From the NCBI GenBank assembly GCA_963720685.1, contig CAVRGF010000008.1, forward strand, positions 89-64,088: 64,000 bases of DNA, in the 5' to 3' direction. Shown here one piece after another: positions 34,846 to 52,405 of the stretch. Every line of letters begins with the position of its first letter. Position 1 is the first letter of the stretch. This stretch comes from an uncultured bacterium. Lineage in GTDB: Bacteria > Actinomycetota > Thermoleophilia > Solirubrobacterales > 70-9. The notes beneath the pieces are model-generated. The model worked only from the letters and a program-made list of their open reading frames with translations, was not told the DNA's origin and made no database searches. The position numbers were made by a program, and so were the translations under genes.

Positions 34846-35820
34846 TCAGTGCTCGCGTGGCCGACGGGAGCGGTCTTTCGCGGCCATCAACTCCGAATCC
34901 GCTGCGGCGAGCAGGGTTGCCGGATCGGCGTCGGTGATCCCGGCGACCCCGAACGATATGGCGATCGCGCCGCCGCCGAGCTGTGCGTCGCGCACCTGCC
35001 CGGCGATCCGCGCCGCGGCGATGCCCGCCTCCTTTCGCGTCGTCTCGGGCATCACGATTGCGAACTCGTCGCCGCCGATCCGAAAGCAGTCGTCGGTGAG
35101 CCGCGACTCGTCGAGGATCCTGGCGACCGAGCGGAGGACCTGGTCCCCGCCGGCGTGGCCGAGTCGCTCGTTCACATCGTCGAAACCGTTGAGGTCCAGC
35201 AGGCACAGGGAGAACGGATGCTCATAGCGGCTGGAACGGGCGACCTCGACCGCCAGCCGCTCCTCGAACGCGCGGCGGTTGGGCAGGGCTGTCAATGAGT
35301 CATGACGGTTGTCGTGTGACTCGATTTCGTTCAGGGTCGCGTTTGAGAGGTGGGCGGCGATCAGCTCGCTCAGCAGCTCGAGCGTTTCGACATCGCCGTC
35401 GTCGAAGTGAAACGCCTCGGGCGAGTACACCTTGAGCACGCCGACAGGTTCGCCCCTTTGGACGAACGGCACGCAGATCATCGAGGCGGCGTTGACCCGG
35501 CGGCAGGCGTCAGCGTCGACGCGGGCGTCGTTGCCGGTGTCGTCGCTCCGCAGCACCCGGCCTTCCGTGAGGCACAGGCCCGAGAGGCTCGACTCCATCT
35601 TCGAGCTCGTCCCCAGATATGGCGCCGCCTCTCCGGTGGTGACCGCGTAGACCATCTCGTCCTCCTCGGCGAGCTCGATCACGCCCGCGCTCGCGCGAGT
35701 CAGCTCCTGGGCCCGCTCGGCGATCAGCTCCATGATCGCGTTCAGCTCCAGATCGCCGCCGGCGATCTCGGTCTGGGTTCGAATCAGCGCCCGCAGCTCG
35801 CTCTCTGTCTGAGGGGCCAT
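34846..35820 (-). CDS. GAF-domain diguanylate cyclase (GGDEF)
   Basis: 324 aa. N-terminal GAF-like domain; C-terminal D.LT.LPNRR ... RIGGDEFAIV with an intact GGDEF. An RxxD I-site (RLTD) lies five residues upstream of the GGDEF. Confidence 0.85.
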   Translation of the reverse strand: MAPQTESELRALIRTQTEIAGGDLELNAIMELIAERAQELTRASAGVIELAEEDEMVYAVTTGEAAPYLGTSSKMESSLSGLCLTEGRVLRSDDTGNDARVDADACRRVNAASMICVPFVQRGEPVGVLKVYSPEAFHFDDGDVETLELLSELIAAHLSNATLNEIESHDNRHDSLTALPNRRAFEERLAVEVARSSRYEHPFSLCLLDLNGFDDVNERLGHAGGDQVLRSVARILDESRLTDDCFRIGGDEFAIVMPETTRKEAGIAAARIAGQVRDAQLGGGAIAISFGVAGITDADPATLLAAADSELMAAKDRSRRPREH

Positions 35821-35929
35821 ACAAACCCTGATCGGCGTCGACGACCCATTTGCTTAGCCGCCAACAGGCGGAGAAGAGCGATGGAGGCGCGTCCGCGGGG
35901 CGGCGGCCGTTGCGCATCCAGCTGGGCCC

Positions 35930-35967
35930 TGACTTTGGCCCTCAGGCGGACATGAGAATGCTCTTAG
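35930..35967 (+). promoter_or_regulatory. Shared cis element, site S1 (upstream of response regulator 1, divergent from GGDEF gene)
   Basis: tgactttggccctcaggcggacATGAGAATGCTCTTAG. The 16-mer core is 15/16 identical to site S2. Confidence 0.55.
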
Positions 35968-36009
35968 AGAGAACCGGGAGGATTGCCGCGTGCCTACGAT
36001 GCCGGAGAA

Positions 36010-36684
36010 ATGAGGATCCTGATCGTCGAAGACGAGTCGGGCATCGCCGACTTCCTTCGACGCGGACTCGAGTCGGAGGGCTACGCGGTCGAGTGGACTG
36101 CCGATGGCAGGGATGGTGAGGCCCTCGCACTGAGCGGCGACTTCGACCTGGTGCTGCTCGACGTGATGCTTCCCGGTCGCGACGGGCTCGAGATCCTCGC
36201 ATCCGTCCGCCGCTCGCTCCCCTTGCTGCCCGTGATCCTGCTCACCGCTCGAGGTCAGGTCGAGGATCGGGTTCGCGGCCTCGATTCGGGGGCGACCGAT
36301 TACGTTACGAAGCCGTTTTCGTTCGACGAGCTCGCGGCTCGGGTGCGCGCACGCCTTCGTCAACCCGAGCCCGACCGGGGCACGCGGCTCGAGGTGGGAG
36401 ACATATCGATCGACCTGCTTCGCCGCCAAGTCAGGAGGGGCGGGGTCGAGATTCGTCTCTCGGCCACAGAGTTCGGCCTGCTTGCCTTCCTGGCCCGCCA
36501 ACCGGATCAGGTGGTGCCGCGAGAACGGATTCTGAAGGCGGTGTGGGGCTACGACTTCGACCCGGGCACGAACGTGCTCGGGGTGTACATCGGCTATCTA
36601 CGGAGGAAGCTGGCGCGCTCCGGCCGTCCAGCGCCGATTGAGACGATTCGATCGGTCGGCTACCGGTTGAGCACGGGTGCCTGA
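36010..36684 (+). CDS. OmpR/PhoB-family response regulator (TCS-1)
   Basis: Starting at ATG 36010 (MRILIVEDE..), with DLVLLDVMLPGRDG (phospho-Asp), a TA...K box and a C-terminal winged helix ..IETIRSVGYRL. Confidence 0.9.
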   Translation: MRILIVEDESGIADFLRRGLESEGYAVEWTADGRDGEALALSGDFDLVLLDVMLPGRDGLEILASVRRSLPLLPVILLTARGQVEDRVRGLDSGATDYVTKPFSFDELAARVRARLRQPEPDRGTRLEVGDISIDLLRRQVRRGGVEIRLSATEFGLLAFLARQPDQVVPRERILKAVWGYDFDPGTNVLGVYIGYLRRKLARSGRPAPIETIRSVGYRLSTGA

Positions 36685-38140
36685 CTCGCTGATCGCCAGA
36701 CTGCGCGGAACGGGGCTTCGTACCCGGCTTGCGGTCACGATCGCCGCGATCGTCCTGGCGGCGGCCGGGGCGACCTTCGTAACCGTGTACCGAGGAACCG
36801 GATCGCGGGTCAGGGACCAGATCGAGCGCGATCTGACCACCGAGGTGGACTCACTGACGGGTCGACTCTCCGAGCATGGCGCGGCGGGCCGCGGCATCAC
36901 CGTGCTCCGGGCGCGCCACTCGATAGCGTCGGAGCCCGCGTTCGGGCCGTCCTCGCGGCTTGTCGTGGTGGACGTTCCGCCGGCCGGCATCGCTACCAAC
37001 GAGCCGGAGCTTCTGGGGCTCGGGGGCGCCAACCGATCCGAGGAATCGGGCCCGGATCGGCGTCGAGAGGCGGGTGAGGCCCGGGCGATTCGCGACGCTC
37101 CACTCGGTCTGTCGACCGTGCATCTCGAGGATGCCGGGGATGTCGCACTGATGAAGCGGGCGCTGCCATCCGGCGGGCGCAAACCGGTGACGATCACGGT
37201 CGGTCAGCCGCTGGCGCCTGTCGATCGAGCCCAGGAGGGCCTCGCGAAGACCTTTCTGATCGCCGGCTCGCTCACCGTCGCTGCCGCGCTCCTGGCTGCG
37301 TTCTTCGCCGCAGCCTGGATCGCCTCTCCGCTTCGCCGGATGGCCCGCGCCGCAGGTGCAGTCGATGGGGGGGACATCTCTGGCCGCGTGCCTGAGCGGG
37401 GGGCCCGCGAGGTGCAACAGCTCGCGGAGTCGTTCAACCACATGCTCGACCGGCTTGAGGATGCGTTCGCACGACAACGTGCCTTCGTCTCCGATGCGTC
37501 GCACGAGCTGCGTACGCCCCTGACGGCAATCCGCGGCCAGATCGAGATTCTGGGCCGCTCCAAGGTTCCGAACGACAGCGAGGTTGAGGTCACTGCTGCG
37601 GCGGTCAATCGAGAGATCGCGAGGATGGATCGGCTCGTTGACGACCTGACTCTGCTGGCCCAGAGCGACGAGGGAATGGCATATCAAGAGGGTTGGATCG
37701 ACCTCGAGCCGTTCGTCGCCGAGACCGTGGAGGTCGCGCGCGGCGCCGGTACGCGCGTGGAGGTCGGCAGCGTCCCCCGGGGTCGTCTGATGGGCGACGG
37801 CGACCGGCTCGCCCAGGTGCTGCGCAACTTGGTCCAGAACGCGCTCGAGCACACGGGGCCTGGCGGTCTGGTGCGCGTCTCGGCTACCCGGAGGGGCGAT
37901 CGGGTTCGAATTTCCGTTGACGACGACGGACCGGGAATCCCCACCACTGAACGGGAGCTGATCTTTGACCGTTTCCATAGAACCGACTTCTCGCGTACCC
38001 GCAGGGAAGGGGGGAGCGGGCTCGGCCTCGCGATCGCGCGGGCGATCGTCGCGGCCCATCAGGGTTCGATCTGGGCGGAGGCATCGCCGCAGGGCGGGGC
38101 CAGGATCGTCCTCGAGCTCCCCCGCTTCGAGGCACGGTAG
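36677..38140 (+). CDS. Sensor histidine kinase (TCS-1)
   Basis: GTG 36677 overlaps the RR stop by 8 nt. 487 aa with two TM helices flanking a ~150-aa sensor loop, then a HAMP domain. H-box SHELRTPLT, and N/G boxes NALEHT, DDGPGI, GSGLGLAIAR. Confidence 0.9.
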   Translation: MPDSLIARLRGTGLRTRLAVTIAAIVLAAAGATFVTVYRGTGSRVRDQIERDLTTEVDSLTGRLSEHGAAGRGITVLRARHSIASEPAFGPSSRLVVVDVPPAGIATNEPELLGLGGANRSEESGPDRRREAGEARAIRDAPLGLSTVHLEDAGDVALMKRALPSGGRKPVTITVGQPLAPVDRAQEGLAKTFLIAGSLTVAAALLAAFFAAAWIASPLRRMARAAGAVDGGDISGRVPERGAREVQQLAESFNHMLDRLEDAFARQRAFVSDASHELRTPLTAIRGQIEILGRSKVPNDSEVEVTAAAVNREIARMDRLVDDLTLLAQSDEGMAYQEGWIDLEPFVAETVEVARGAGTRVEVGSVPRGRLMGDGDRLAQVLRNLVQNALEHTGPGGLVRVSATRRGDRVRISVDDDGPGIPTTERELIFDRFHRTDFSRTRREGGSGLGLAIARAIVAAHQGSIWAEASPQGGARIVLELPRFEAR

Positions 38141-38173
38141 CCGAGGTCCTGGGCGCGGCGAATCCTCGCCGGC

Positions 38174-40177
38174 TCAGCCGGTGTAGGGATGGGTCGGAGT
38201 GGTGCCCGATGGGCCGAGTAGGTCGAAACCGTCTGGAATCCTCAATTGACCCGGTCGCTTGCCGGGGTGGTTCGTGCGCCCGTACTGCCAGACGATTCGC
38301 TTCGTACGCGGGTCGATGAGAGCGACCCGATCGCGGTAGTCGTCGGTCACGGCGATCAGGCCCCCCGGGAATCGCTCGGCGAGGCTGGGATGGTCGAGCA
38401 TCCCATCGCCCGAGGCTGGGTGGTACGACCAGAGGATGCGGCCCTCGCGATCGAATTCGTAGATTCCCCCGGGACGAGCGTAGTCGGCGACCAGATAGCG
38501 ATTTGGACCCAGCTGCTGCGGATCGGACGGATAGGCGATGGGCAGATGCGCGCTCCAGACGAGGTGGCCGCGACGAGTGAACTCGTCGACATACGAGCCG
38601 TTGACCTCGGAAACGAGGACGTCTCCGTTGGCCAGCGGGGTGTCGCCGTTCGGCGAGCCGAGGCTGCGCGGCGGATCGTGGGTGCAGGTTCCGGTCGTGC
38701 CGATCTGCGACGAACGGTGGCCGGGGCCCAGGAAGAGGACTCGGCAGTTCTGCGCGTCGGCGACTGTGACGGTTCCATCCCGCAGCAGGTAGGCGTCGTC
38801 GGGCTCGTGGAAGTACCCAGAGCTCGATCCGATCACCCCGGGATGCCCGAACGACGCGATCACGTTCCCGGCCGGGTAGCCGAGCTCCACAATCGCCTCG
38901 TTCTCCTCCTCGTTGGAGATGATCCCGTGCCCGTGATCGATGAAGAACGCGTCGTCGGGAAAGTAGAACCCTCCAGCAGGCGTCGGCCGAGAGCCCGGGT
39001 AACGCCAGAGGATTCGCTTGCGGGCGTTGACGACGAGCAATCGGTTGTTGCCGCGATCGGCGATCAGGAGGCGACCTTGAAAGGGGGTGTCAGAAGCGGC
39101 AGATGAAGGACGATCGGTGGGCCCAGACGGAGCGGAGGTGACCTGCTCGCTCCTGATCGCAACCACGGAGCTGAGCGGCGAGCCGCTCGGCCCGATGCCT
39201 CCCACCAGGTACCCGGTTGCGCCAACCGTCGCGGCTGCCGCGTTCGTTACCGGCGTCGGGAGATCGCCGGCTGGAGTGGCGCGGCCGTTGGACGGATCGA
39301 AACGGAGAATCGTGGCCCTCGCCCGTCCCCCTGCGGTTCCGCCCAGAACGTAGATCTGCCCCGCCAGTGAGATTGCAGAGGCGTGGGCCACGGGACCCGG
39401 TAGACGCCCGACGACCGACACCTGCCCGGTCGACACCCGGATCGCTTGGATTGCATCCGTCGGATGGCCGCTGGCGGTCTCGCCTCCGAACGCGTAGATC
39501 GTGTCCCCGGCCGTCGCGACCGCCGGGTAGCGAACCGGCACGGGCAGGTGCGCGACGGTGGTGAAGCTTCGGCCGTCGCTCGTCCGCAGAACGTCCGGGG
39601 AGGGGGCCCGACCGTCGTAGCCGCCAATCACATAGACCTGGCCGCCGACCACGGCGGCGGCCAGGTCCGAGCGTGGTGCCGGAAGCTGGCCCACGATCCG
39701 GCCGGCGCCGCCAGTGCCGATGACCTCCACGGCAGTCGTGCTGGCGCTTGTCCCGCCGCCCAAGACCAGGATCCGTCGACCGACCGTTGCGGCCGCTGCA
39801 TCGTGAACCGGGCGCGGCAGGGTGGCTGCCGGGCTGAGGCCACCGCTCCGCGGATCGAGCCGGAACACCCCGCTCGCCGATTGGTCGGCGGCATCCAACC
39901 CGCCGAGCACCAGAATGTCGCCTCGGTACGGGGTCGCCGCCTCGCCGGAGATCGGTGCTGGAAGCGTGGTCGGCAGCTCTCTGGCCACCAGCCTCGAGCG
40001 AGGCCGCCCCCCGCCCCCCGAGCTGGTCCCGGTGTCGCCTCCGCCGTCGGAGCCGAGCGTGCTCCAGACGGCCGCGGCGACGATGACCGGTGCAACGCAG
40101 GCGCCGACCGCCACCAGTCGGCGCCGTCGGAAGACGGCTCGGCTCGACCGACGCAACCTACGTCGCGACGCAGTCAC
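38174..40177 (-). CDS. Membrane-anchored double beta-propeller protein (Kelch-repeat N-half, NHL/ASST-like C-half)
   Basis: I prefer GTG 40177 (VTASRRRLRR.. then TM VAVGACVAPVIVAAAVW). The track start at 40204 is a TTG lying inside the cis element. Kelch-like repeats (VLGG, YVIGGYDG, YAFGG, YVLGG, YLVGG) are followed by a second set of blades (RILWRY, HLVWSA, RILWSY, RIVWQY). Confidence 0.7.
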   Translation of the reverse strand: MTASRRRLRRSSRAVFRRRRLVAVGACVAPVIVAAAVWSTLGSDGGGDTGTSSGGGGRPRSRLVARELPTTLPAPISGEAATPYRGDILVLGGLDAADQSASGVFRLDPRSGGLSPAATLPRPVHDAAAATVGRRILVLGGGTSASTTAVEVIGTGGAGRIVGQLPAPRSDLAAAVVGGQVYVIGGYDGRAPSPDVLRTSDGRSFTTVAHLPVPVRYPAVATAGDTIYAFGGETASGHPTDAIQAIRVSTGQVSVVGRLPGPVAHASAISLAGQIYVLGGTAGGRARATILRFDPSNGRATPAGDLPTPVTNAAAATVGATGYLVGGIGPSGSPLSSVVAIRSEQVTSAPSGPTDRPSSAASDTPFQGRLLIADRGNNRLLVVNARKRILWRYPGSRPTPAGGFYFPDDAFFIDHGHGIISNEEENEAIVELGYPAGNVIASFGHPGVIGSSSGYFHEPDDAYLLRDGTVTVADAQNCRVLFLGPGHRSSQIGTTGTCTHDPPRSLGSPNGDTPLANGDVLVSEVNGSYVDEFTRRGHLVWSAHLPIAYPSDPQQLGPNRYLVADYARPGGIYEFDREGRILWSYHPASGDGMLDHPSLAERFPGGLIAVTDDYRDRVALIDPRTKRIVWQYGRTNHPGKRPGQLRIPDGFDLLGPSGTTPTHPYTG

Positions 40178-40199
40178 GTGGCAAGCTTCGCGACCCGGG

Positions 40200-40268
40200 G
40201 TCAAGCTCGCCTAAGCGTTCGCGTGAGAATGCTCTTAGGTCAGGGACTCCCCATAAGGGCTTTCTCAC
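40200..40268. promoter_or_regulatory. Shared cis element, site S2, with an inverted second half-site
   Basis: GTCAAGctcgccTAAGcgttcgcGTGAGAATGCTCTTAG occupies 40200-40238. The 16-mer 40223-40238 is matched in inverse orientation by ATAAGGGCTTTCTCAC at 40253-40268 (13/16 complementary, 14-nt spacer). The site lies between the divergent Kelch gene and ApbE operon A. Confidence 0.6.
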
Positions 40269-40313
40269 CCGCAGCACAGCCGCTCCTAAGGTTGGGCCTC
40301 AATCATCCGGGGC

Positions 40314-40664
40314 ATGGATTCGATTCCCTCCGGGCAACCGGCCTCACCCGCCGCTGCTCGCGACGCGGGTCTCGCTCGTCTCAACCGGCTTCGGCGCCTG
40401 CTCGTCGTCGCGAGCCTGGCGTTGGTCGGCGTGTTCGCGGGCGTGGTCGCACAGGCCAGGCCCGGAAAGTCGTCCGGCACGCCGACCGGGTCAGGCGGGG
40501 CGGGGACATCAGATCGCCGCTCGTCGTCGGGCCAACCATCTTCACGGTTCGCGCCGAGCGCGGGCGAGGAAGCCGTCCCGGCGCCGAGCATCTCGCCCCC
40601 CGCGCAGGCGCCTCTGCCGGCGCCCGCCGCACCCGCACCGCCGATCGTCTCCGGCGGGTCATGA
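40314..40664 (+). CDS. Small single-pass membrane protein with Pro/Ser/Gly-rich tail (first gene of cluster A)
   Basis: 116 aa. Positively charged N-terminus, TM LLVVASLALVGVFAGVVA, then a low-complexity tail. The stop overlaps the apbE start (ATGA). Confidence 0.5.
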   Translation: MDSIPSGQPASPAAARDAGLARLNRLRRLLVVASLALVGVFAGVVAQARPGKSSGTPTGSGGAGTSDRRSSSGQPSSRFAPSAGEEAVPAPSISPPAQAPLPAPAAPAPPIVSGGS

Positions 40665-41590
40665 GCCCGGTCGCCTGGGACTCCTTCCCGGCGCTGGGAA
40701 CCACTGCCGCATTGTTCGTCACCGAGGGCAATGGTCTGGATCGGGCCCGAAGCGCGCTGGAGGCGGAGTTGGCGGCGATCGACCGCGCCTGCAGCCGCTT
40801 TCGATCCGACTCCGAGCTCTCGCGAGTCAATCGCGCCCAAGGCCGGGCGATCCCAGTGAGCGAGCTGTTCGCGGAAGCCGTGGGCGTGGCGCTCGATGCC
40901 GCGCGGGTGACCGCCGGCGCCGTCGACCCCACGATCGGCCGCTCGCTGCGAGCGATCGGGTACGACTGCGACTTCGCCGACATCGTGCCCGGTTCGGACC
41001 GCCCGCTGCGGGTTCGCGCAATGCGAATCGGCGGGTGGCGCGCCGTTCGGCTCGATCGACGAACCCGGACCATTCGGCTCCCGAAGGACGTCGAGCTGGA
41101 TCTCGGAGCGACCGCCAAGGCACTCGCGGCCGACCGGGCCGCACGTCGCGCCCAGCGGGAGATCGGGGGAGGCGTGCTCGTCAACCTCGGGGGCGACCTG
41201 TCGGTCGCCGGAACGACGCCGCCGCAGGGCTGGTCGGTTCGCGTCACTGACGATCACGCCGGAACCGGGGGCGATTGCGGACAGACGGTTCGCATCTCGG
41301 TCGGTGGTTTGGCGACTTCCAGCACGACCGTACGGCGCTGGGCCACCTCCGACGGCTCGCGCCATCACATCGTGGACCCCCGGAGTGGGGACTCGGCGGC
41401 CGAGGTCTGGCGGACGGTGAGCGTCGCGGCCAGCTCGTGCGTCGACGCCAACGTCGCCGCCACGGCCGCGATCGTCCGTGGCGAGTCGGCTCCCGCGTGG
41501 CTCACCGAGCTCGGTTTGCCGAGTCGCATGGTGTCTCGGGATGGAAGGGTCGTGCTGGTGGGCGCCTGGCCCGAGGAGCTCCCCGCTTGA
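40661..41590 (+). CDS. apbE: FAD:protein FMN transferase (ApbE family), copy A
   Basis: Starting at ATG 40661 gives 309 aa. Motifs ..SRFRSDSELSRVN.., DLGATAKALAAD, RHHIVDPRSG. No signal peptide or lipobox at the N-terminus (MSPVAWDSFPALGTTAALFV). The 714-aa track ORF upstream part is antisense to the Kelch gene. Confidence 0.85.
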   Translation: MSPVAWDSFPALGTTAALFVTEGNGLDRARSALEAELAAIDRACSRFRSDSELSRVNRAQGRAIPVSELFAEAVGVALDAARVTAGAVDPTIGRSLRAIGYDCDFADIVPGSDRPLRVRAMRIGGWRAVRLDRRTRTIRLPKDVELDLGATAKALAADRAARRAQREIGGGVLVNLGGDLSVAGTTPPQGWSVRVTDDHAGTGGDCGQTVRISVGGLATSSTTVRRWATSDGSRHHIVDPRSGDSAAEVWRTVSVAASSCVDANVAATAAIVRGESAPAWLTELGLPSRMVSRDGRVVLVGAWPEELPA

Positions 41591-42702
41591 GCCCCCTCGT
41601 GGCCAGCGCGCCGAGTGCCTATTGGTATGCGACCCGCGGCGCCGGCATCGTCGCCCTGCTCCTGTTGACCGCGAGCCTCGTGATGGGGATCGTCGACCTG
41701 AGCCGCTGGCAGTCCGTGCGGCTGCCTCGCTTCGTGCTCGACGGAGTCCATCGAACGCTGTCGCTCCTGGCCGTCGCGATGGTGGCGATTCACGTCGTGA
41801 CCACCGTGGCGGACGGCTTCACCCCAATCGGCCTGACGGATGCGGTGATCCCGTTTGCGTCGGCGTACCGACCCCTTTGGCTGGGCCTGGGCGCACTCGC
41901 CTTCGACCTACTCCTCGCGGTGACCCTGACCAGCGTGCTTCGCCGGCGGATCGGCCACCGCGCCTGGCGAGCGACCCATTGGGCGGCCTACGCATGCTGG
42001 CCGCTTGCCCTGGTCCACGGGTTGGGCACCGGGACGGACACCCAGGTTCCATGGGTGCTGCTACTCAGCGCCGCCTGCCTACTGATCGTGCTCGTTTCCG
42101 TGGGGTGGAGGGTCGCAACGGCCTGGCCCGGCGACAGCGGCCGGCGGACGCTGGCCGGTGCCCTCGGCGCCACCGGGCTGCTCGCCCTGGTCATCTGGGT
42201 GGTCGGCGGGCCCCTCGGAGCGAACTGGGCGAGTCGAGCAGGCACGCCCGCCCCGCTCCTGGCCAGCGTCGGAGCGGGCTCGTCCTCGGGGGCCACCCCG
42301 CACGCGGCCAGCGCGGCATCGTTGCCGATCCCGTTCTCCGCGGATCTCGCAGGGAGCCTGCACGAGCGCGCTGCGGCCTCCTCGGATCTCGTCGTGCTGC
42401 AGATTCGAACCTCACTGCACGGTGGCGCCAAAGGGAAGCTCGGGATCCAGATCGAGGGAGTTCCCCTGGGCGGCGGCGGTGTCTCGATGCAGGCCAGTCG
42501 CGTCACGCTCGGCCCGCCCAGCGAGCCATCGCAATATCGCGGCCGGCTGATCCAGCTGCGAGGCCAGCGCCTGCTCGGGAGTCTGTCTGACGGCGCCTCG
42601 GTCATCCAGCTGAATGCGAACCTCTCGATCGACCAGGCGAGCCAGCGGGTGACAGGCACGGCGGCCGCGCAGCCGGTCGCCGGCCGGGGACGAACGAGCT
42701 GA
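41587..42702 (+). CDS. Ferric-reductase-like (FRD/MsrQ/NOX-type) dihaem transmembrane protein with extra TM and ~170-aa C-terminal domain, copy A
   Basis: TTG 41587 overlaps the apbE TGA (alternative GTG at 41599). Six TM helices carry two His pairs: HRTLSLLAVAMVAIH (H-x13-H) and HWAAYACWPLALVH (H-x12-H). A seventh helix LAGALGATGLLALVIWVV and a soluble beta-rich domain follow. Confidence 0.8.
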   Translation: MSPLVASAPSAYWYATRGAGIVALLLLTASLVMGIVDLSRWQSVRLPRFVLDGVHRTLSLLAVAMVAIHVVTTVADGFTPIGLTDAVIPFASAYRPLWLGLGALAFDLLLAVTLTSVLRRRIGHRAWRATHWAAYACWPLALVHGLGTGTDTQVPWVLLLSAACLLIVLVSVGWRVATAWPGDSGRRTLAGALGATGLLALVIWVVGGPLGANWASRAGTPAPLLASVGAGSSSGATPHAASAASLPIPFSADLAGSLHERAAASSDLVVLQIRTSLHGGAKGKLGIQIEGVPLGGGGVSMQASRVTLGPPSEPSQYRGRLIQLRGQRLLGSLSDGASVIQLNANLSIDQASQRVTGTAAAQPVAGRGRTS

Positions 42703-43973
42703 TGGATGGCGCCGCCCTCCCAAGGGTGACCGCCGCCTGGCGGGATGATCAGGCGATCGGCTTCCCGGAGCACCTCGCCGCCGCGGGGCCGTTGCCTGTG
42801 CCCGACCCGCGCGGGCGCCACGAATTGATCGCCGCGATCGATCGCAGCGGGTTGCTGGGTCGCGGAGGCGCTGGATTCCCCACCGCCGTCAAGATGCGAG
42901 CCGCGGCCGCCCGGAGGGGACGGCGGATCGTCGTCGCGAACGGCGCCGAAGGGGAGCCGGCAAGCGAAAAGGACCGGGCCCTGATGGCGCGGGCGCCGCA
43001 CTTGGTGCTTGACGGTGCGGTCCTCGCCGCCGCAGCAATTGGAGCCGGCGAGGTGATCGTCTGTGCGGAGCGGGACTCGAGCGAGGCGATCGACGCCCTG
43101 GCGACCGCGATCGGCGAGCGGCCCCACACGACCGGGGTCGAGATCAGCCTGGTCGAGGTCCCGTCCACATACCTGGCGGGCGAGGAGAGCGCTCTCACCA
43201 ACTATCTCAACACCGGTCAGGTACTCCCGACATTCGTCCCGCCCCGCCCCTTCGAGCGCGGAGTCGATGGCAGGCCGACGTTGATTCAGAATGTCGAGAC
43301 CCTTGCCAACGTGGCGCTGATCGCCCGCCGTGGCCCGGAGTGGTTCCGGGGCGTGGGCACCCAGGGTGACCCCGGCTCGACCCTGATCACGCTCGGCGGT
43401 GCGGTGGTTGAGCCGGGCGTCTATGAGGTTCCGAGCGGCATCCTCCTGGGCGACCTGGTCGAGCGGGCGGGTGGCTCTTCGACCTCGATCCGGGCCTTCT
43501 TGATCGGCGGCTACGCGGGATCGTGGCTCGCACCCGAGCGCGCCCTGGAACAGCCCGTCGACCGCGCTCGCCGTGCGCGTGGCTGGGGGCTCGGTGCGGG
43601 TGTCGTGATCGCGCTCCCGGCGACCGCGTGCGGCGTCTGCGAGACGGCGCGCGTTGCACGCTACCTCGCCGAGGAATCGGCGGGGCAATGCGGCCCCTGC
43701 GTCCATGGCCTCGGCTCGATCGCCGACCTGCTCGACGAGATCAGCGAAGGGATCGCCGCGCCGGGCACGCACCTGTGGCTCGAGAGATGGGCCGAGGACA
43801 TCGCCGGCCGAGGAGCATGCGGCCACCCAGACGGCACGGTCCGGTTCGTCGCCAGCGCCGTGTCGACCTTCAGGGACGAGATCGGCCGGCACGAGTCCGG
43901 CGGCAACGCGTGCCGCGGGCGCTCGGGCGGGCCATGGGTCCTGCCGCTACCGCACTATGCGGCGGCCCGCTGA
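42702..43973 (+). CDS. NuoF-like NAD(H)-binding flavoprotein with Fe-S binding region (soluble)
   Basis: ATG shares one nt with the upstream TGA. 423 aa. GRGGAGFPTAVKM and ANGAEGEPASEKDRALM (51-kDa-subunit FMN/NADH motifs), a SLBB-like middle, and a C-terminal Cys pattern ACGVCE..ESAGQCGPCVHG..GACGHPDG. Confidence 0.8.
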   Translation: MDGAALPRVTAAWRDDQAIGFPEHLAAAGPLPVPDPRGRHELIAAIDRSGLLGRGGAGFPTAVKMRAAAARRGRRIVVANGAEGEPASEKDRALMARAPHLVLDGAVLAAAAIGAGEVIVCAERDSSEAIDALATAIGERPHTTGVEISLVEVPSTYLAGEESALTNYLNTGQVLPTFVPPRPFERGVDGRPTLIQNVETLANVALIARRGPEWFRGVGTQGDPGSTLITLGGAVVEPGVYEVPSGILLGDLVERAGGSSTSIRAFLIGGYAGSWLAPERALEQPVDRARRARGWGLGAGVVIALPATACGVCETARVARYLAEESAGQCGPCVHGLGSIADLLDEISEGIAAPGTHLWLERWAEDIAGRGACGHPDGTVRFVASAVSTFRDEIGRHESGGNACRGRSGGPWVLPLPHYAAAR

Positions 43974-44230
43974 TGGCCAGGCTGCGAGTCAACCCGATCG
44001 CCTGCGAGGCTCACGGCCTTTGCGCCGAGCTGTTTCCCGAGTGGATCACGCTCGACGATTGGGGTTACCCGATCGTCGATGACGCGATCATCCCCGCTTC
44101 GCTGCTCGAGCACGCCGAGCGCGCCGCCGACGCCTGTCCGACGCTGGCGTTGCTCCTCGAGTCATCGGATCGTCCCGTGTCGACCGGATCGCTCACCGAA
44201 ACACCGGCTCGGCGGTCTCGGAGTCGGTGA
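43973..44230 (+). CDS. Small ferredoxin (single-cluster, Fer4_15-like), copy A
   Basis: ATG shares one nt with the upstream TGA. 85 aa: MARLRVNPIACEAHGLCAELFPE ... AADACPTLAL (CxxHGxC...CP). Confidence 0.75.
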   Translation: MARLRVNPIACEAHGLCAELFPEWITLDDWGYPIVDDAIIPASLLEHAERAADACPTLALLLESSDRPVSTGSLTETPARRSRSR

Positions 44231-44240
44231 GGCTCGGACT

Positions 44241-44918
44241 TCAGTTGGGGTGGCCGGTCTGCCAGCCCGCGATCGCGCCGAGCAGTGAGAGCGCGAGCGC
44301 CACACCGGCACCGAGCGATGCAGCCACGAGCATGCCCCGAATTCCCGCCCCCGGGAATGCCCGGCGTGGGCCTGCACCCCAGTCGCCCGCCAGCGAGCGG
44401 ATCACGCGCGGGATGTGGGCCAGGAAGTGGGCGGCGAACACGGCGCCCCAGACGACGAAGGTGATCTTGTGGAGCAGCAGGAGCTGATCGGAGCGATGCC
44501 CGAGGAGCAACAGCAACACGCCTGTCACGAAGACTCCGGCGGTGGCGGCCACAAGGGCCGGGGCGAGCAGCCGGAGCGGTAGCGGGGGCGGGCCCTTCTC
44601 GCGGTAGGCCCTCGCGCCTGTGTAATAACGGACGAAGCGATAGCCGGTGCTGGCCAGCTTCAGGAGCACGGGCGGGATCAGCACCAGCCCAACGAACATG
44701 TGGACGCTCACGAGCCCGCCCATGCGCAGGATCGTGATGCCCTCGGCTAGGAGCAGCACGGTCAGCACCGCGGCGGTCGCGCTGGTGAGGATCTCGTTGC
44801 CCTGCGTGCCGCCAAGGCGATCACGACGGCCGAGCGCTGTCGTGGGTCGGATTTCACTGCGAGACGGCGACTCGGCGGCACGCTTCGCGGGCAGCGCGGT
44901 GTGTTCGCCCAGTCGCAT
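44241..44918 (-). CDS. Four-TM His-containing membrane protein, unknown function
   Basis: 225 aa. Conserved-looking His residues lie in helices (SVHMFVG, LLLHKITF, AAHFLAHIP). Cis element S3 lies 24-61 nt upstream of its ATG. Confidence 0.55.
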   Translation of the reverse strand: MRLGEHTALPAKRAAESPSRSEIRPTTALGRRDRLGGTQGNEILTSATAAVLTVLLLAEGITILRMGGLVSVHMFVGLVLIPPVLLKLASTGYRFVRYYTGARAYREKGPPPLPLRLLAPALVAATAGVFVTGVLLLLLGHRSDQLLLLHKITFVVWGAVFAAHFLAHIPRVIRSLAGDWGAGPRRAFPGAGIRGMLVAASLGAGVALALSLLGAIAGWQTGHPN

Positions 44919-44941
44919 CGGTCGAACCGTCAGACCTCGCC

Positions 44942-44979
44942 GTCAAGGCGAGCTAAGACGCACGTGAGAATTCGCTTAC
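44942..44979 (+). promoter_or_regulatory. Shared cis element, site S3
   Basis: GTCAAGgcgagcTAAGacgcacGTGAGAATTCGCTTAC aligns with S2 over ~39 nt with a single 1-nt indel. The 16-mer core is 13/16 identical. Confidence 0.55.
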
Positions 44980-45043
44980 GCGGGCACGGTGCCCGCCGGA
45001 GAGCACGTCGCGGTGGCCGAAAGGATGTGGGAGGGAGCCCCCC

Positions 45044-45541
45044 TCAGGGCTTGAAGACCATCAGCACGAGGATGGCGACGGCGATGCCCGCCGCAAGGTA
45101 GTTCGTCGCCCGCGACAAGCGGTCGTCCAGGAGTGCGCGAAGCTCGGCGGACGCCGGGTGCCCTTCGGCCCCGAGCCTCGATGCCAAGAGCCGCGCCTGC
45201 TTCGGGCGTTGCCCGCCGACGGCGCCGAGCGCCATCGCGGCCACGAACAGCACGAGCGCTGCGTCGATCCAGCCGTCGCCATAGCCGAAATCACGCAGGT
45301 GAACCAGCCATAGCCCGAATCCGAGCAACACCACGCCCCCCGATACGACCAGCAGGACTCCAATCCGGGTCAAGCCGAGAAGCAGCGCAATCTCGGCGGG
45401 TTGCCGGCGCCGTCGGGCGGCCTCGAAGCCGACCCCGGCAACGACGATCCCGGAAGCAAACGCCAGCGCTCCCAGGATGTGAAAGAACAACGCGATGTCA
45501 TCCACTGCGGGGAGTCTGACGACTCGGTTCGGCTGGCGCAC
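45044..45541 (-). CDS. DUF2269-like membrane protein
   Basis: 165 aa, 4 TM helices. The FFHILGALAFASGIVVAG opening is typical of DUF2269 as I recall it. The start could be a few codons downstream. Confidence 0.5.
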   Translation of the reverse strand: MRQPNRVVRLPAVDDIALFFHILGALAFASGIVVAGVGFEAARRRRQPAEIALLLGLTRIGVLLVVSGGVVLLGFGLWLVHLRDFGYGDGWIDAALVLFVAAMALGAVGGQRPKQARLLASRLGAEGHPASAELRALLDDRLSRATNYLAAGIAVAILVLMVFKP

Positions 45542-45613
45542 ACACCCACCTCGTGCGACCAGCGCAGGGGTGTCCCAAATCTGCGAACCGAGCAGGGGTG
45601 GTCGATGGCTCGG

Positions 45614-45892
45614 TCAGGTGATCCCGTGGTCCCGCTTCGCCTGTGCCTCCATGACCTCGAGACGCGCATAGTAGTCGGGAAACTCGTTCAGGTGCGCCAG
45701 GGCGATCTTCCCGGTCACAGTGGGGTCGTCGCTGGTTACGTTGGTCGCGGGATCATGGGACCCGTGCTCGAGCTCGACGTCGAGCCCCGTCCGGAACTCT
45801 TCGACGTCGAACGGCGCCGTGGTCCAGTCGATGCCGATCTCCTCGCCGATCTGGCGCGCCTCCTCGATCGTGAACGTCGTTCTCGCCGCCAT
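45614..45892 (-). CDS. DUF5661-like small soluble protein
   Basis: 92 aa. GLDVELEHG ... KIALAHLNEFPDYYARL. GGAGGA SD upstream. 6-nt gap to the preceding gene. Confidence 0.55.
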   Translation of the reverse strand: MAARTTFTIEEARQIGEEIGIDWTTAPFDVEEFRTGLDVELEHGSHDPATNVTSDDPTVTGKIALAHLNEFPDYYARLEVMEAQAKRDHGIT

Positions 45893-45898
45893 GGGGCC

Positions 45899-46861
45899 TC
45901 ACTTTCCTCCCTCGATCCGCCGGTAATGGTCGCGCCAGATCAGTCGGTGGACGCCAAGGTGGCGCGGGAGGCTTCGAAGTCCGGGAATGAAGGGGACGCA
46001 GATGAAGGCGAGGCTCAGCACCATCATCAACACCCAGATCTGGGCGTCGGCGTTTTCGGAGGTGTTGAAGGGAGAGATCTGATACCAGAAGGTGTAGAGC
46101 CACAGCCATACCTGTCCCGGATAGCTTCCGGTCTCATTCATCATTCCCCACTGGTCTCCCAGCAGGTGCTGAGCCTCGGCGCGGGACTCGAAGTACCCGC
46201 CGCCGGAAAGGAACAGGAGCGGCTTGGTGAAGTTCGTCTGGTAGAACTGGCTCGACGTCAGCAGCGCCCCGTCGAGGCCGCCGCTCTCCGCGAGCCCGGC
46301 GAGGGAGCTCATGATCGGCGCCACGGGCCCATAGGGGCCGGGGGGCAGGACCGGGAGCCCATCCGGGTAGCGCGCCTTCTCGAGCCCAGCCGTGTAAGCG
46401 TTGGTCCACCGCGATTGGAGCCTCGGCGGGGCGGCCTGATAGGCGGCCAGGGCCCGCTTCAGTCGCACGTTGCCGGGGATGCTGTGCAGCGGATCGAGCA
46501 CGAAGTCGCGCGCCGTGTCGATCCGATAGTGCACTCCCGGCCAGCGTTGCGTGGGGACCCCGAGGACCTTCTGTCCAGCACCAGGGGTGTCGTTGTAGGG
46601 CGGGCCGTAGGTTGCGACCTCGCTCGTCCCGTCGAGCTCCGTGACCGCGGTTGCCACGAAATCGCCCGGGTCGGCTTGGGCCCAGCTCTGGATCGTGATC
46701 GGCGGATCGTCGGGAGATGAGAACAGCACCGCCAGGACCACCGTCAAAGCCGTGATCGCCGCCAGCGCGACGACGAACTCCTTGATCAGGTCGTAGCGGA
46801 CGTAGTCGCCCCGCCACTCGCGTTCATCGGAGGCCGGGGCCGGTGCGTCGGCCGGGCTCAC
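45899..46861 (-). CDS. Membrane protein co-translated with cytochrome b (N-terminal TM, ~220-aa external domain, C-terminal TM pair)
   Basis: GTG overlaps the cyt b TGA (GTGA). 320 aa. TM FVVALAAITALTVVLAVLF, then C-terminal ..YPGQVWLWLYTFWYQISPF.. and IWVLMMVLSLAFICVPFIPGL. It may stand in for the subunit-IV/cyt b C-terminal part, but this was not recognised with confidence. Confidence 0.5.
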   Translation of the reverse strand: MSPADAPAPASDEREWRGDYVRYDLIKEFVVALAAITALTVVLAVLFSSPDDPPITIQSWAQADPGDFVATAVTELDGTSEVATYGPPYNDTPGAGQKVLGVPTQRWPGVHYRIDTARDFVLDPLHSIPGNVRLKRALAAYQAAPPRLQSRWTNAYTAGLEKARYPDGLPVLPPGPYGPVAPIMSSLAGLAESGGLDGALLTSSQFYQTNFTKPLLFLSGGGYFESRAEAQHLLGDQWGMMNETGSYPGQVWLWLYTFWYQISPFNTSENADAQIWVLMMVLSLAFICVPFIPGLRSLPRHLGVHRLIWRDHYRRIEGGK

Positions 46862-47514
46862 GATGGATCACCGCTTTCGGCGGCGGCCCTGGCCCTGGCC
46901 TGGGAACGAGCCGGATATGGCGGTACGACCCCGTGACTGCGAACCAGCAGGACGTGAGCAACGACCAAGGCGACCACGACGGTGGGGAGCAGGATGACGT
47001 GGAAGGTGTACATCTGCCCGAAGTCGGCGACGTTGAAGTAGGCGCCGATTCCGACCGCGTTGAGCCCGTCCTTGCCCTCGCTCGCTATCCACTGCGCGTC
47101 GAAGTTCTGCTGCGAGAGATAGCCGGTGAACGCTGTTCCAATCGCGACCAGGAACACGACCGCCCCCGTGACCCAGGTTCGGGCGCGTCCCCCCCGCCAG
47201 GCGCCCATGAAGAACTTTCCCCACAGGTGTACGACCATGACGAAGAAGAAGAGCTCCACGGACCACAGGTGCACGCTGTTGAAGAACCGCCCGACGCCGG
47301 ACACGTGCCACCAGGCTGGGCCCTTGAGGCCGAGGATCACACCCGAGGCCACGACCACGATCAGCGCCGCGATCGTGGCGACGCCGAACACGTAGATCCA
47401 GGAGGAGACGTAGCTGGGCTGCCGGTCGGGGAGCAGCTTCTCGGGCGGAAGGGCGCCGACGGCCCGCTCTCGCACCCATTCCGTCCACATCTGGGACTCG
47501 CGCTGATCGCTCAC
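46858..47514 (-). CDS. Cytochrome b/b6 N-terminal-domain protein (four-helix, dihaem)
   Basis: I prefer GTG 47514 (GTGA overlap with the upstream small ORF); the alternative is ATG 47490. Helix B HLWSVELFFFVMVVH (H-x13-H), helix D HVILLPTVVVALVVAH (H-x14-H, b6-type spacing), TGYLL-like FTGYLS. Confidence 0.8.
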   Translation of the reverse strand: MSDQRESQMWTEWVRERAVGALPPEKLLPDRQPSYVSSWIYVFGVATIAALIVVVASGVILGLKGPAWWHVSGVGRFFNSVHLWSVELFFFVMVVHLWGKFFMGAWRGGRARTWVTGAVVFLVAIGTAFTGYLSQQNFDAQWIASEGKDGLNAVGIGAYFNVADFGQMYTFHVILLPTVVVALVVAHVLLVRSHGVVPPYPARSQARARAAAESGDPS

Positions 47515-47708
47515 GGCCGACCACCCCGGTGCGGGAACGGCAGCAGGATCGCCGCCACGAAGACGGCGACCATCAGCAGGATCACGACGATGTTCGCCAC
47601 CGACATCTGGAAGAAGTGCCAGTGCACGTAGTGGGCGGGACCGTTGAGGTCGAAGACCGCCGGCGCTGGGAGCCACCGTAGACGGCCTCCGGTGATCACG
47701 AGTGGCAC
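47511..47708 (-). CDS. Small single-TM protein preceding cytochrome b
   Basis: 65 aa, GTG start. ..HYVHWHFFQMSVANIVVILLMVAVFVAAILLPFP. The stop overlaps the cyt b start. The coding call rests mainly on this coupling. Confidence 0.45.
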   Translation of the reverse strand: MPLVITGGRLRWLPAPAVFDLNGPAHYVHWHFFQMSVANIVVILLMVAVFVAAILLPFPHRGGRP

Positions 47709-47890
47709 CGACCGCTAGGCACGGGGAGGCGGTTCCTGGGCTGATCGCCGTGAATCTCGTGCATGGTGCCCGATCCTCATCGCCCTACGATCCTCCGCCA
47801 TCCGGACAGATCCGCGGAGTCGGTGCGGGTAACTACGGTGCCAGCACGGGGTGACGCCAATCGACGCTCGCCATGCTGCCCGAGGAGCAT

Positions 47891-47920
47891 CGTCTCGGGT
47901 CGCACGCTCGGCCCGAGACG
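47891..47920 (-). terminator. Hairpin just downstream of ferredoxin B (end of cluster B operon)
   Basis: cgtctcggg (47891-47899) is perfectly complementary to cccgagacg (47912-47920) with a 12-nt loop. It lies 11 nt after the stop at 47931. No U-tract. Confidence 0.45.
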
Positions 47921-47930
47921 ACCCCGTCGC

Positions 47931-48137
47931 TCACGGGAACACCGTCTCCCCGGTCTCGGAGTCGGTGACCGTGATCGCCAGCGAGGGGCAGGCTCTGGCC
48001 GCTTCGAGGATCAGCTCGTCAGGTCCCGCGCCGATCACTATCGCCGTGTCGTCGAGCTCGAAGACCTCAGGGGCGATGTCGACGCAGTCGCCGTGGGCGC
48101 TGCAGGCGCCCGGATCGATCGTGGGCAGGTATCTCAT
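47931..48137 (-). CDS. Small ferredoxin (single-cluster, Fer4_15-like), copy B
   Basis: Starting at ATG 48137 (ATGA overlap with the reductase stop) gives 68 aa: MRYLPTIDPGACSAHGDCVDIAPE ... AARACPSLAI (CxxHGxC...CP). Confidence 0.8.
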   Translation of the reverse strand: MRYLPTIDPGACSAHGDCVDIAPEVFELDDTAIVIGAGPDELILEAARACPSLAITVTDSETGETVFP

Positions 48138-49318
48138 GGATGGACCTCCTCGGGGTCGTGGTCGGAGTGTGAAAGTTCGATCTCGCGCCGGAGCGCGACC
48201 AGCTCTCGCGGCTGATCGACGACCAGCGCGGCGATGGCCCGCCCTCTCCGCGTGTAGGTGACCCTGAGCTCGCGCCCTTCGCGATCGCATTCGAAGCAGG
48301 CGCGGTCCGCGTGCTCGGCGTGGCCGACGTACTGGATGCGAAGCCCGTATTGGTCGCTCCAAAAGCTCGGCAGCGGGGGTGGCCCCGGATCGTCGCCCAG
48401 CATCGCCTTTGCCGCCGCGGCGCCCTCGCGAGCGGCGGTCTCCCAGTGCTCGGCACGGGTGTGGAGGCCGAACCGCGGGTCGAAGGATCTGGCCACGTCG
48501 CCGGCTGCGAAGACGTTCGGGATCGACGTTCGGCCCGCCGGGTCGGTCAGCACGCCATCCGGCTCGAGCCCGCTGTCGCCAAGCCACTCAGCGGCGGGAA
48601 GGACACCGACGCCGACCACCACCACGTCACAGCCGACACGCCGACCATCCTCGAGCACCAGCTCCTCGACCCGCCCGTTGCCGAGTCCTCCCGCGAGCTT
48701 GGCAGAGAGCAGCACCTGAACCTCCTGGCTGCGATGCAGATCCACCAGCCACCGGCCGACGTTCTCGCCGAGGATGGGCGCGAGGGGTGCGGGGAGCGCC
48801 TCGACGATCGTCACATCGAGGCCCGCTCCGCGTGCCGTCGCCGCCACCTCCTGTCCGATGAATCCGCCTCCCACGATGACCAGGCGCGCTCCGGGCCGCA
48901 GGGCGGCTCGCAGCCGGCGGGCATCGGCGAGGCTTCGCAGGTAGTGGACGTTCGGCCAGCCCTCGAGCGGCGCCAGGCGGCGCGCGGCGCTTCCGGTGGC
49001 GATCAGCAGCTTCTCGTAGCCCAGGGCGGGCCCAGCGTCCAGCTCGAGGCGCCTCTCGGTGGGGTCGAGCCGCGTCGCCGTGTGACCCAGGATCAGATCG
49101 ATCTCATTGTCCTCGTACCAGGCGGGGGGCCGGAGGGTGATCGAGTCCTCATCGACCGCGCCGGCGAGGAGCTCCTTGGAGAGCGGGGGACGGTCGTAGG
49201 GAGGCTCGGGCTCGGCGCAGACGATGCGAACCGCGCCTTCGTATCCGCGGGTCCTGAGCGTCTGCGCGCACCGCTGGGCCGCCAGCCCCCCGCCGACGAT
49301 GACGACGTCGCCACTCAT
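48134..49318 (-). CDS. FAD/NAD(P)H-dependent ferredoxin reductase (putidaredoxin-reductase-like)
   Basis: Starting at ATG 49318 (ATGA overlap with the FRD-B stop) gives 394 aa. VVIVGGGLAAQRCA (FAD GxGxxG), LVIVGGGFIGQEVA (NAD GxGxxG), FAAGDVA, and a C-terminal Reductase_C-like domain. Confidence 0.85.
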   Translation of the reverse strand: MSGDVVIVGGGLAAQRCAQTLRTRGYEGAVRIVCAEPEPPYDRPPLSKELLAGAVDEDSITLRPPAWYEDNEIDLILGHTATRLDPTERRLELDAGPALGYEKLLIATGSAARRLAPLEGWPNVHYLRSLADARRLRAALRPGARLVIVGGGFIGQEVAATARGAGLDVTIVEALPAPLAPILGENVGRWLVDLHRSQEVQVLLSAKLAGGLGNGRVEELVLEDGRRVGCDVVVVGVGVLPAAEWLGDSGLEPDGVLTDPAGRTSIPNVFAAGDVARSFDPRFGLHTRAEHWETAAREGAAAAKAMLGDDPGPPPLPSFWSDQYGLRIQYVGHAEHADRACFECDREGRELRVTYTRRGRAIAALVVDQPRELVALRREIELSHSDHDPEEVHP

Positions 49319-49971
49319 GCCGGGTCCTCGCTGATCGCCGGTTGAGCCGTCTGCATGCCCGGCATCGGGTGATGGCGGGGCGCTCTTGGGATGGGCCGGT
49401 GCGCCGCGGGCCGCGCCGATCGGGCGCGCGCGGATCGCCGCGCGCCGATCATCCGGGCGACGAACAGGACCGCGATCACCGGGACGGTCGCAAACAGCCA
49501 GATGCGCATCCAGGGCGTTGAGGCATCGGTGCCGGCACCGAGCGTGTGGGCAACCGCGAGCCCATAGACCACCACGGTCAGCCTGTGAGCCTGCCGCCAC
49601 AGCCTCGGCCCGATTCGCCGGCGGATGTAGAAGCTGAGCCCGAGGAGGGCCCCCAGGTAGCCGGCGACGATTCCGAGCCCAGTCCAAAGCGGCCGGTACT
49701 GCATCGTGAACGGCACCGTGATCCCAGCGGGGCCCGGGTTGAGCCAGGGATCGCCGAGAAGGGTGACGCCGTGTGCCGCGATCGCCACCAGTGAGGTGAC
49801 CGCGGTCTGTTCGTGGATCGCTGCGAGCACGCGCGGTAGGCCGGGCTTGCGCGCCCAGCGTCCGGCCATCGTCAACCCGAGTCCGACCGAGATGGTGACC
49901 AGCGCCAGCGCAACGATCCCGGAGGCCCGGCTGGCGAGCCACCATGCGTGTTGCGCCAGGTCGGTATTCAC
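49315..49971 (-). CDS. Ferric-reductase-like dihaem transmembrane protein, copy B (minimal, no extra domain)
   Basis: GTG overlaps the ApbE-B TGA (GTGA). 218 aa. HEQTAVTSLVAIAAH (H-x13-H) and HRLTVVVYGLAVAH (H-x12-H). The N-terminus AWWLASRASGIVALALV parallels copy A (AYWYATRGAGIVALLLL). Confidence 0.8.
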   Translation of the reverse strand: MNTDLAQHAWWLASRASGIVALALVTISVGLGLTMAGRWARKPGLPRVLAAIHEQTAVTSLVAIAAHGVTLLGDPWLNPGPAGITVPFTMQYRPLWTGLGIVAGYLGALLGLSFYIRRRIGPRLWRQAHRLTVVVYGLAVAHTLGAGTDASTPWMRIWLFATVPVIAVLFVARMIGARRSARARSARPAAHRPIPRAPRHHPMPGMQTAQPAISEDPA

Positions 49972-52279: not shown

Positions 52280-52352
52280 GTCGTCGTCTCCTCCTTTGGG
52301 AGGTGGCATGGAAATCGTGGCTGCCAGTCTGAGGAGGGCCCGGGAAGCGGAC

Positions 52353-52392
52353 GTCAAGGGCCGGGTTAAGAGTGGGGAAAATGTCGACTTGG
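52353..52392 (+). promoter_or_regulatory. Degenerate fourth copy (S4) of the shared cis element
   Basis: GTCAAGggccgggtTAAGagtgGGGAAAATGTCGACTTGG, between cluster B and response regulator 2. It keeps GTCAAG, TAAG, G.GA.AAT and C.TT, but the spacing differs. Weak. Confidence 0.3.
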
Positions 52393-52405
52393 ACGGTCAG
52401 CCTGG

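Follow-up and report, generated by a model that had tools for sequence, protein, structure and literature searches.

A repeated inverted-repeat element at the promoters of a redox gene block in an uncultured Solirubrobacterales bacterium is probably the operator of a CusR/CopR/HprR-like response regulator

In class II promoters of the PhoB type, the -35 element is absent or poor, and about 10 bp separate the end of the pho boxes from the -10 element downstream. In E. coli, the HprR/CusR box CATTACAAAATTGTAATG lies between hprR and hiuH-msrPQ (PMC9302797). CopR of C. glutamicum recognises one repeat, TGAAGATTTnnTGAAGATTT, which lies in the region between the divergent copR and cg3286 and from which CopR activates the genes on either side; this site is unique in the C. 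glutamicum genome, and phosphorylated CopR binds it more tightly (PMC3140484). Here we describe a short element that recurs between the genes of a two-component system and a set of redox and membrane genes in an uncultured member of the Solirubrobacterales, and we compare it with these systems.

The window (the whole stretch of DNA that we analysed, 64,000 nt, positions 89-64088 of contig C8) belongs to an assembly of 2.99 Mb with 69% G+C. The genes, the copies of the element (S1, S2+, S2- and S3) and the promoters that we predict are collected in Table 1. Pfam confirmed the FRD and NuoF domains of cluster A. For the Kelch protein we considered a copper-radical-oxidase (GlxA-like) identity and rejected it, since a search of solved structures gave only generic Kelch/NHL propellers. 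A hairpin, GCGGGCACGGTGCCCGC, lies directly beside S3 in the window (44980-44996), and a second hairpin, GAGGG...CCCTC, follows the DUF2269 stop codon at about 45030-45050. We take both to be probable terminators of the minus-strand operon upstream; in that case, the membrane protein gene would be transcribed as a unit of its own.

Table 1. Genes, copies of the element and predicted promoters at the locus (positions in the window unless a contig is named).
Feature	Position	Strand	Details
GAF-GGDEF protein	34846-35820	-	Pfam and frame analysis
S1	35942..35966	+	Box TCAG 35942-35945, 7 nt, core TGAGAATGCTCTTA 35953-35966; upstream of RR1
Likely RR1 promoter and start	35995..36012	+	TACGAT 35995-36000, 9 nt, ATG 36010; predicted
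RR1, OmpR type	36010-36684	+	Pfam: receiver and winged-helix domains
Histidine kinase HK1	36677-38140	+	Pfam
Membrane-anchored Kelch/NHL protein	38174-40177	-	Pfam and frame analysis
Likely leaderless Kelch promoter	40175..40189	-	GAAGCT 40189..40184, 6 nt, GTG 40177; predicted
S2+	40200..40237	-	Assigned to the Kelch gene by layout on the gene strand; plus-strand reading: GTCAAG 40200-40205, TAAG 40212-40215, core TGAGAATGCTCTTA 40224-40237
S2-	40254..40291	+	Core TAAGGGCTTTCTCA 40254-40267, box CTAAGG 40286-40291; assigned to cluster A
Likely leaderless promoter of the first cluster A gene (small membrane protein)	40301..40316	+	AATCAT 40301-40306, 7 nt, ATG 40314; predicted
Cluster A	from 40314	+	Small membrane protein, ApbE-like, FRD-type membrane protein, NuoF-like, ferredoxin
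Membrane protein gene	44241-44918	-
Likely leaderless promoter of the membrane protein gene	44916..44931	-	GACGGT 44931..44926, 7 nt, ATG 44918; predicted
S3	44942..44978	-	Assigned to the membrane protein gene 44241-44918; plus-strand reading: GTCAAG 44942-44947, TAAG 44954-44957, core TGAGAATTCGCTTA 44965-44978
DUF2269 / DUF5661 / cytochrome b operon		-	Beyond the membrane protein gene 44241-44918
Cluster B		-	Followed by RR2-HK2 (+)
S4, proposed degenerate fourth copy	52353..52392	+	Between cluster B and RR2; not accepted
Fifth, weaker site	C4:16413-16454		Outside the window; GGTGAGG..CCTCAGG..TGAGAATTCGTTGAG

The first-pass annotation of this DNA had reported that the 16-mer GTGAGAATGCTCTTAG at 40223-40238 recurs at three places, and the positions were exact: the relative at 35952 has one mismatch, and those at 44964 and, on the reverse strand, at 40253-40268 have three each. 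Dinucleotide-preserving shuffles of the window gave a mean of 0.16 matches, and none of the 100 shuffles reached four. Searched genome-wide, as the annotation had suggested, the relaxed core TGAGAA-N4-CTTA has exactly four matches, all at this locus (35953, 40224, 40254 on the reverse strand, and 44965). All four are intergenic, in line with what had been said of every copy. We also ranked the genome with an ungapped position weight matrix that was trained solely on sites from other genomes. The four window sites came 1st to 4th with 24.6-31.3 bits, the next match was on contig C4 with 19.9 bits, and all others had at most 15.9 bits. From the uniqueness in the genome and the top four matrix ranks, we therefore concluded that the motif is real, rare and specific to this locus. 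A dispersed repeat (REP/MITE-like) has many copies across unrelated loci; the exact pattern here has four copies within one 9-kb stretch, plus the weaker copy on C4, which does not fit such a repeat. The other near-matches we put down to chance: one (C3:89414) falls at the 3' end of a coding gene, one (C6:42704) adjoins a tRNA gene, and those on C7, C9 and C10 are within coding sequence or out of context. We found no further convincing site among the 21 TGAGAAT occurrences outside coding sequence, as defined by a crude ORF filter.

The core is a 14-bp imperfect inverted repeat with a 6-2-6 layout, TGAGA(A/G)-NN-CTCTTA, and an auxiliary TAAG box stands 7-8 nt to its left. The order-wide consensus from 20 sites is TaAG-N7-TGAGAG-Tt-CTCTTA, and the variant in the genus of the window is TGAGAA-TG-CTCTTA. 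The reverse complement of TGAGAG is CTCTCA, hence the repeat is imperfect; its CTCTTA half and its GAGA(A/G) half are equally conserved. At orthologous promoters we found a pair of related half-sites with a constant short spacing, with the core TGAGAG-NN-CTCTTA at the 20 sites upstream of RR1 and at the S1 and S2 positions of two congeners (G009 and G019). The block that had been noted as common to the copies at 40200 and 44942 is real, in the form GTCAAG-N5/6-TAAG. We also tried a model of four phased TnAG direct repeats with a period of about 11 bp (GTCAAG / CTAAG / TGAGAA / CTTAG), to which a regulator may bind in tandem. This model fits the window copies, but we dropped it because CTCTTA is conserved whole across the order and the outermost box is not. 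In its place we adopted the 6-2-6 inverted repeat plus one auxiliary box.

We examined how the element and its genes are arranged in relatives. In the congeners G009 and G019, S1, S2+ and S2- are at the orthologous places, and the S1 core is identical. Six members of the genus (G004, G005, G014, G024, G054 and G041) have a collinear operon of RR, HK, ApbE, FRD, NuoF and Kelch genes, and we therefore read the arrangement in the window as a broken-up single operon. The collinear operon of G041 has the membrane protein gene after Kelch, and in G019 this gene still follows cluster A in the same orientation, without a site of its own; an S3-like site is absent from the operon-internal membrane protein gene in both genomes. 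In G046, one site serves RR1 and the divergent small membrane protein gene. The homologue, in the genome studied here, of a 476-aa protein that follows a site in G014 has no site.

Across the order, we found RR1 orthologues with 56-69% identity in 83 of 301 sampled genomes. We compared 27 RR1 loci, all from other genera and families. The test at relatives that the annotation had proposed came out in favour of the element, with the box upstream of the RR gene at 17 of the 27 loci and in at least ten genera of the order. At the remaining ten RR1-like loci there is no box within 130 nt, and these may be paralogues. The product of the divergent gene beside RR1 in other genera is a small membrane protein with a single pass, as is that of the first gene of cluster A, and in all three genera checked (G148, G320 and G108) ApbE and FRD genes come next in the divergent operon. 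At several loci of the order, as in the window, there is a second site on the other flank at a distance of 2-4 kb.

Two of these three genera have second operator copies 2.4-3.6 kb from the RR1-proximal one, beyond the kinase gene in G148 (L128:9194) and beyond the reductase gene in G320 (L129:9815), and this window is therefore not alone in having several operators at one locus. In all three (L128, L129 and L130), the partner of the RR1-type system is an ApbE with 40-53% identity to the ApbE of cluster B, and in G320 a Pyr_redox reductase follows it. Cluster B in this genome adjoins RR2-HK2, which is unrelated to RR1-HK1, and regulators and clusters appear to have swapped partners.

A consensus sigma-70 scan of 35700-52600 found no promoters. 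The distances between the cores and the start codons are regular. On the strand of the Kelch gene, TAAGAGCA-TTCTCA is followed by 34 nt, GAAGCT, 6 nt and GTG 40177. Cluster A is reached from the reverse-strand copy by TTCTCA, 33 nt, AATCAT, 7 nt and ATG 40314, and the membrane protein gene by TTCTCA, 33 nt, GACGGT, 7 nt and ATG 44918. The layout of 33-34 nt, a hexamer of the form nAnnnT and 6-7 nt to the start is kept in G009 and G019 at both Kelch and cluster A. At the Kelch gene, GA(A/G)GCT with 6-7 nt to GTG is kept in all three species; at cluster A, the hexamers are CACCAT in G019 and GATCCT in G009, with the 33-nt spacing kept. The divergent small membrane protein genes of other genera have [C/G]AnnnT exactly 33 nt after the core at 13 of 14 loci, and in the same 13 the hexamer is 6-7 nt before ATG. 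The -10-like hexamers of the target genes begin with C or G, not T, a point against the operator model given below. No Shine-Dalgarno sequence is present at the Kelch gene, cluster A or the membrane protein gene. The simplest reading is that these three have leaderless mRNAs from weak promoters with a -10 element only; the transcription start sites used here are predictions from the sequence.

The RR1 side has its own spacing, in which the end of the core is followed by 28 nt, TACGAT, 9 nt and ATG 36010, and the promoter segment CGTGCCTACGATGCC is identical in three species. TAGCAT or TACGAT is found 6-11 nt before the start codon in 20 orthologous RR1 loci. Most loci have 28-30 nt between the end of the core and this hexamer; three have 38, 40 and 51 nt, and these longer spacings would be close to whole helical turns beyond 28-30 nt. 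The core is centred at about -47.5 at RR1 and at about -52.5 at the targets. The difference of about 5 bp is half a helical turn, which is awkward for a single symmetric mode of activation at the two types of promoter.

The arrangement between Kelch and cluster A had been described as palindromic, and we considered whether it could be one palindromic operator. The two cores face each other across a gap of 16 nt here, against 17 nt in G019 and 26 nt in G009, with no conservation of the gap sequence, but each core keeps its 33-34 nt to its own hexamer. A fixed distance from core to hexamer combined with a variable gap argues for two independent back-to-back operators, each predicted to serve the gene on its far side. 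This is the reverse of the gene pairing that the first-pass annotation implied.

Which protein binds the box? The gene next to S1 encodes RR1, in which Pfam finds a receiver (Response_reg, 1e-28) and a winged-helix domain (Trans_reg_C, 2.7e-24), and its closest solved structures are DrrD, PrrA and MtrA. The exact sequence TGAGAGNNCTCTTA has 35 matches in the 301 genomes versus 7 for a reversed control, and 18 of the 35 are within 5 kb of an RR1 orthologue where chance gives roughly 0.1 (coordinate tally), although related genomes are non-independent samples and these counts overstate independence. The earlier suggestion that one of the two OmpR-type regulators has these sites as its common operator has thus gained ground, and the box upstream of RR1 orthologues in many genera, together with the 18 nearby matches, points to RR1, not RR2, as the likely binder.

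The sequence of RR1 itself seems to vary along with the site. The segment that precedes the recognition helix is DPGTN (WGYDxDPGTN) in every one of the 20 RR1 orthologues with a core, and in five genus members with a core-less RR1 promoter the segment is DVDSG, DADTS or TADTG; in G004, G005 and G014, whose sequences we compared, it is DVDSG. The TGAGAA core is absent at the RR1 promoters of G004, G024, G005 and G014. This fits co-variation between the DPGTN segment and the core, and the operator specificity may have shifted in the members with the collinear operon. In the same four genomes (L047, L049, L050 and L053-L055), the RR1 promoter has TAACAT or TAAGAT, 6 nt and GTG, a leaderless layout. 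In place of the core, a GTGACG-N4-GTGACG repeat lies upstream of RR1 in G004, and G005 and G024 have a single clear GTGACG.

Taken together, we think that the element is probably the operator of the adjacent RR1, a member of the OmpR/PhoB family closest to the CusR/CopR/HprR branch, and that RR1 activates the promoters from it. Phosphorylated RR1 would bind the core, centred about 47-53 bp upstream of the transcription start, and would aid RNA polymerase at promoters that have a -10-like hexamer alone and whose mRNAs are leaderless. The divergent RR1-HK1 and small-membrane-protein/ApbE/FRD operons would, in most of the order, share a single operator between them. In this lineage, the ancestral operon would have been broken up and the Kelch and membrane protein genes inverted, and each new transcription unit would carry its own copy of the operator at the same spacing. 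S2+ would then act on the Kelch gene, S2- on cluster A and S3 on the membrane protein gene, and S1 would keep the autoregulatory position before RR1.

We suggest activation rather than repression because the conserved core is upstream of the -35 region in nearly all loci (centred at -47 to -53), because the target hexamers [C/G]AnnnT are weak and without a recognisable -35, as in activator-dependent promoters, and because the characterised relatives CopR, CusR and HprR activate. The spacing steps of 28, 38 and 51 nt are near helical turns, which also fits activation from one face of the helix. It is possible to turn the model around and have RR1 repress from the site by blocking weak promoters, or have a dual role, for example negative autoregulation at S1. 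The target elements in the window span the -35 region to about -23 by way of their CTTAGG and CTTGAC boxes, the distant orthologue L101 has a core just 11 nt from the -10 hexamer, and the RR1 promoter, with its good TAnnAT hexamer, may need no activator. Set against the position of the core in nearly all other loci, we consider repression unlikely.

Activation by RR1 also has to be weighed against binding by some other regulator, either RR2 or an unlinked factor, in which case the box would be near RR1 through co-regulated neighbours. G004, G005 and G014 keep a good site at the small membrane protein gene even though the segment is altered in their RR1 and the core is missing from the RR1 promoter itself, which counts against RR1. 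G017 has the site at the small membrane protein gene, and we found no RR1 orthologue in its assembly, which is 83% complete. In addition, 17 of the 35 exact matches across the order are away from RR1 orthologues. However, the other 18 are close to RR1 orthologues across many genera, the box stands at a fixed 28-29 nt from the -10 hexamer of RR1, the promoters of RR2 orthologues in G004, G005 and G046 do not have the box, and there is no regulator gene near the C4 site, so we regard another binder as quite unlikely.

The element could also be the promoter itself, as the first-pass annotation had proposed with GAGAAT as the -10 hexamer. A promoter needs a gene downstream of GAGAAT at every copy; in the plus direction, all that follows the 44965 copy is the hairpin and then the DUF2269 gene, which is convergent and presents its 3' end, and the C4 copy in the same direction faces the 3' end of a convergent gene. 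A specialised promoter in the plus direction, with GAGAAT as -10 and GTCAAG or TTGACC as a -35-like hexamer 18-19 nt upstream, is very unlikely: GAGAAT and GAGAGT do fit nAnnnT and some copies have a TTGAC-like hexamer 17-19 nt upstream, but that hexamer is not conserved, the equal conservation of the CTCTTA half suggests a dyad protein site, the sigma-70 scan was empty, and each served gene has a better -10 hexamer of its own at a leaderless distance (6-9 nt before the start codon) and a fixed distance from the core.

We did not accept the degenerate fourth copy that had been proposed at 52353-52392 (S4), which has no real core and to which the ungapped matrix gives less than 8 bits. S4 resembles the outer boxes of the copies at 40200 and 44942, and the pattern GTCAAG.{14,22}[TG]GA[GA]AAT, which was made after the fact, matches these two and 52353 only in the whole genome. 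In the closest relative, G009, the substitutions at S4 are exactly in the supposed boxes (GCCAAG, TTAAC and TTTGG), and neither the 33-nt nor the 28-nt spacing to a -10 element is present. Support for a copy at 52353 is weak, and we leave it out of the set. At the RR2 orthologue promoters of G004, G005 and G046, we found neither an S4-like box nor a core. The start of RR2 is probably GTG 52430 and not 52406. TACAGT at 52418-52423 is 6 nt upstream of GTG 52430, and both are kept in G009; RR2 would be another leaderless regulator gene if this start holds.

The weaker site on C4 is upstream of a gene for a tiny membrane protein, MTLAITLNLIFVILLLVLLGATMSLPFLLPRGE, which adjoins a Caa3_CtaG paralogue and the gene for cytochrome c oxidase subunit I. 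The layout at this site is TTCTCA, 33 nt and GATCGT, followed by a leader that contains a Shine-Dalgarno sequence. The site and its 33-nt spacing to GAnnnT are kept in G009, G017, G014, G005 and G004 (L058, L059, L062, L063 and L066), which makes six species with this one. We looked for a regulator gene near the C4 site and found none.

For the place of RR1 and HK1 among known two-component systems, the best NCBIfam matches were the heavy-metal CztR/SilR/CopR regulator for RR1 and the CztS kinase for HK1, followed by HprR. Both stay under the curated thresholds of TIGR01387 and TIGR01386 (223.8 against 279.2 bits for RR1, and 230.8 against 292.55 bits for HK1), so that they resemble the CusR/CopR/HprR branch but are below its membership cut-offs. 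As a kind of element, this is an ordinary response-regulator operator. In the literature we found no description of the box sequence, its conservation across the order or the architecture of the leaderless promoters.

Experimental genetics hardly exists for the Solirubrobacterales, although the order is abundant in soil, and the locus gives one of its widespread two-component systems a concrete candidate regulon and operator. ApbE/FRD (MsrQ-like) electron-transfer clusters are thereby linked to the RR1 system, and knowledge of the signal of HK1 would tell when the clusters are used. From the constant operator-promoter spacing, start sites can be predicted, with leaderless mRNAs and weak [C/G]AnnnT hexamers. 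The window is also a clean case of operator copies that follow genes after an operon is split.

Compared with the pho box, the CTTGAC boxes end in a similar way, 10 nt before the -10 hexamers of the Kelch and membrane protein genes. However, the best-conserved part of the element here is further upstream, at about -50, and the promoter-proximal boxes are lineage-specific and not kept across the order. C. glutamicum CopR is, like RR1, an actinobacterial regulator of the CopR/CusR branch with a site beside its own gene, and its half-site TGAAGAT resembles TGAGAAT here. At the CopR site the repeat is direct and perfect, with a period of 11 bp, whereas the core here reads best as an inverted repeat; the CopR regulon is copper resistance, whereas redox and membrane genes are the predicted targets here.

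The closest analogue is E. coli HprR/CusR. Both are OmpR-family systems of the CusR branch that are divergent from an operon with an MsrQ-type (FRD-superfamily) two-haem protein, and in each case the intergenic region between system and operon holds an inverted-repeat box whose centre is 2 bp long (PMC9302797). A CusR/HprR-like system that controls a divergent MsrQ-type (FRD/ApbE) operon through a dyad box may be a module, ancient or convergent, that is found in both Proteobacteria and Solirubrobacterales, which we offer as a tentative and rather doubtful idea. If true, flavinylation-associated clusters would be inducible systems for envelope stress and repair that respond to oxidant or copper, and not constitutive wires for respiration or extracellular electron transfer, and the window would record an operator-promoter module that was copied to each fragment of a broken operon. 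The differences from E. coli are also clear. The half-sites are unrelated (TGAGAG/TAAGAG here and TTACAA there), the partners here are ApbE, NuoF-like, ferredoxin and Kelch proteins and not MsrP or HiuH, and the locus described here has leaderless-looking promoters and several copies of the operator.
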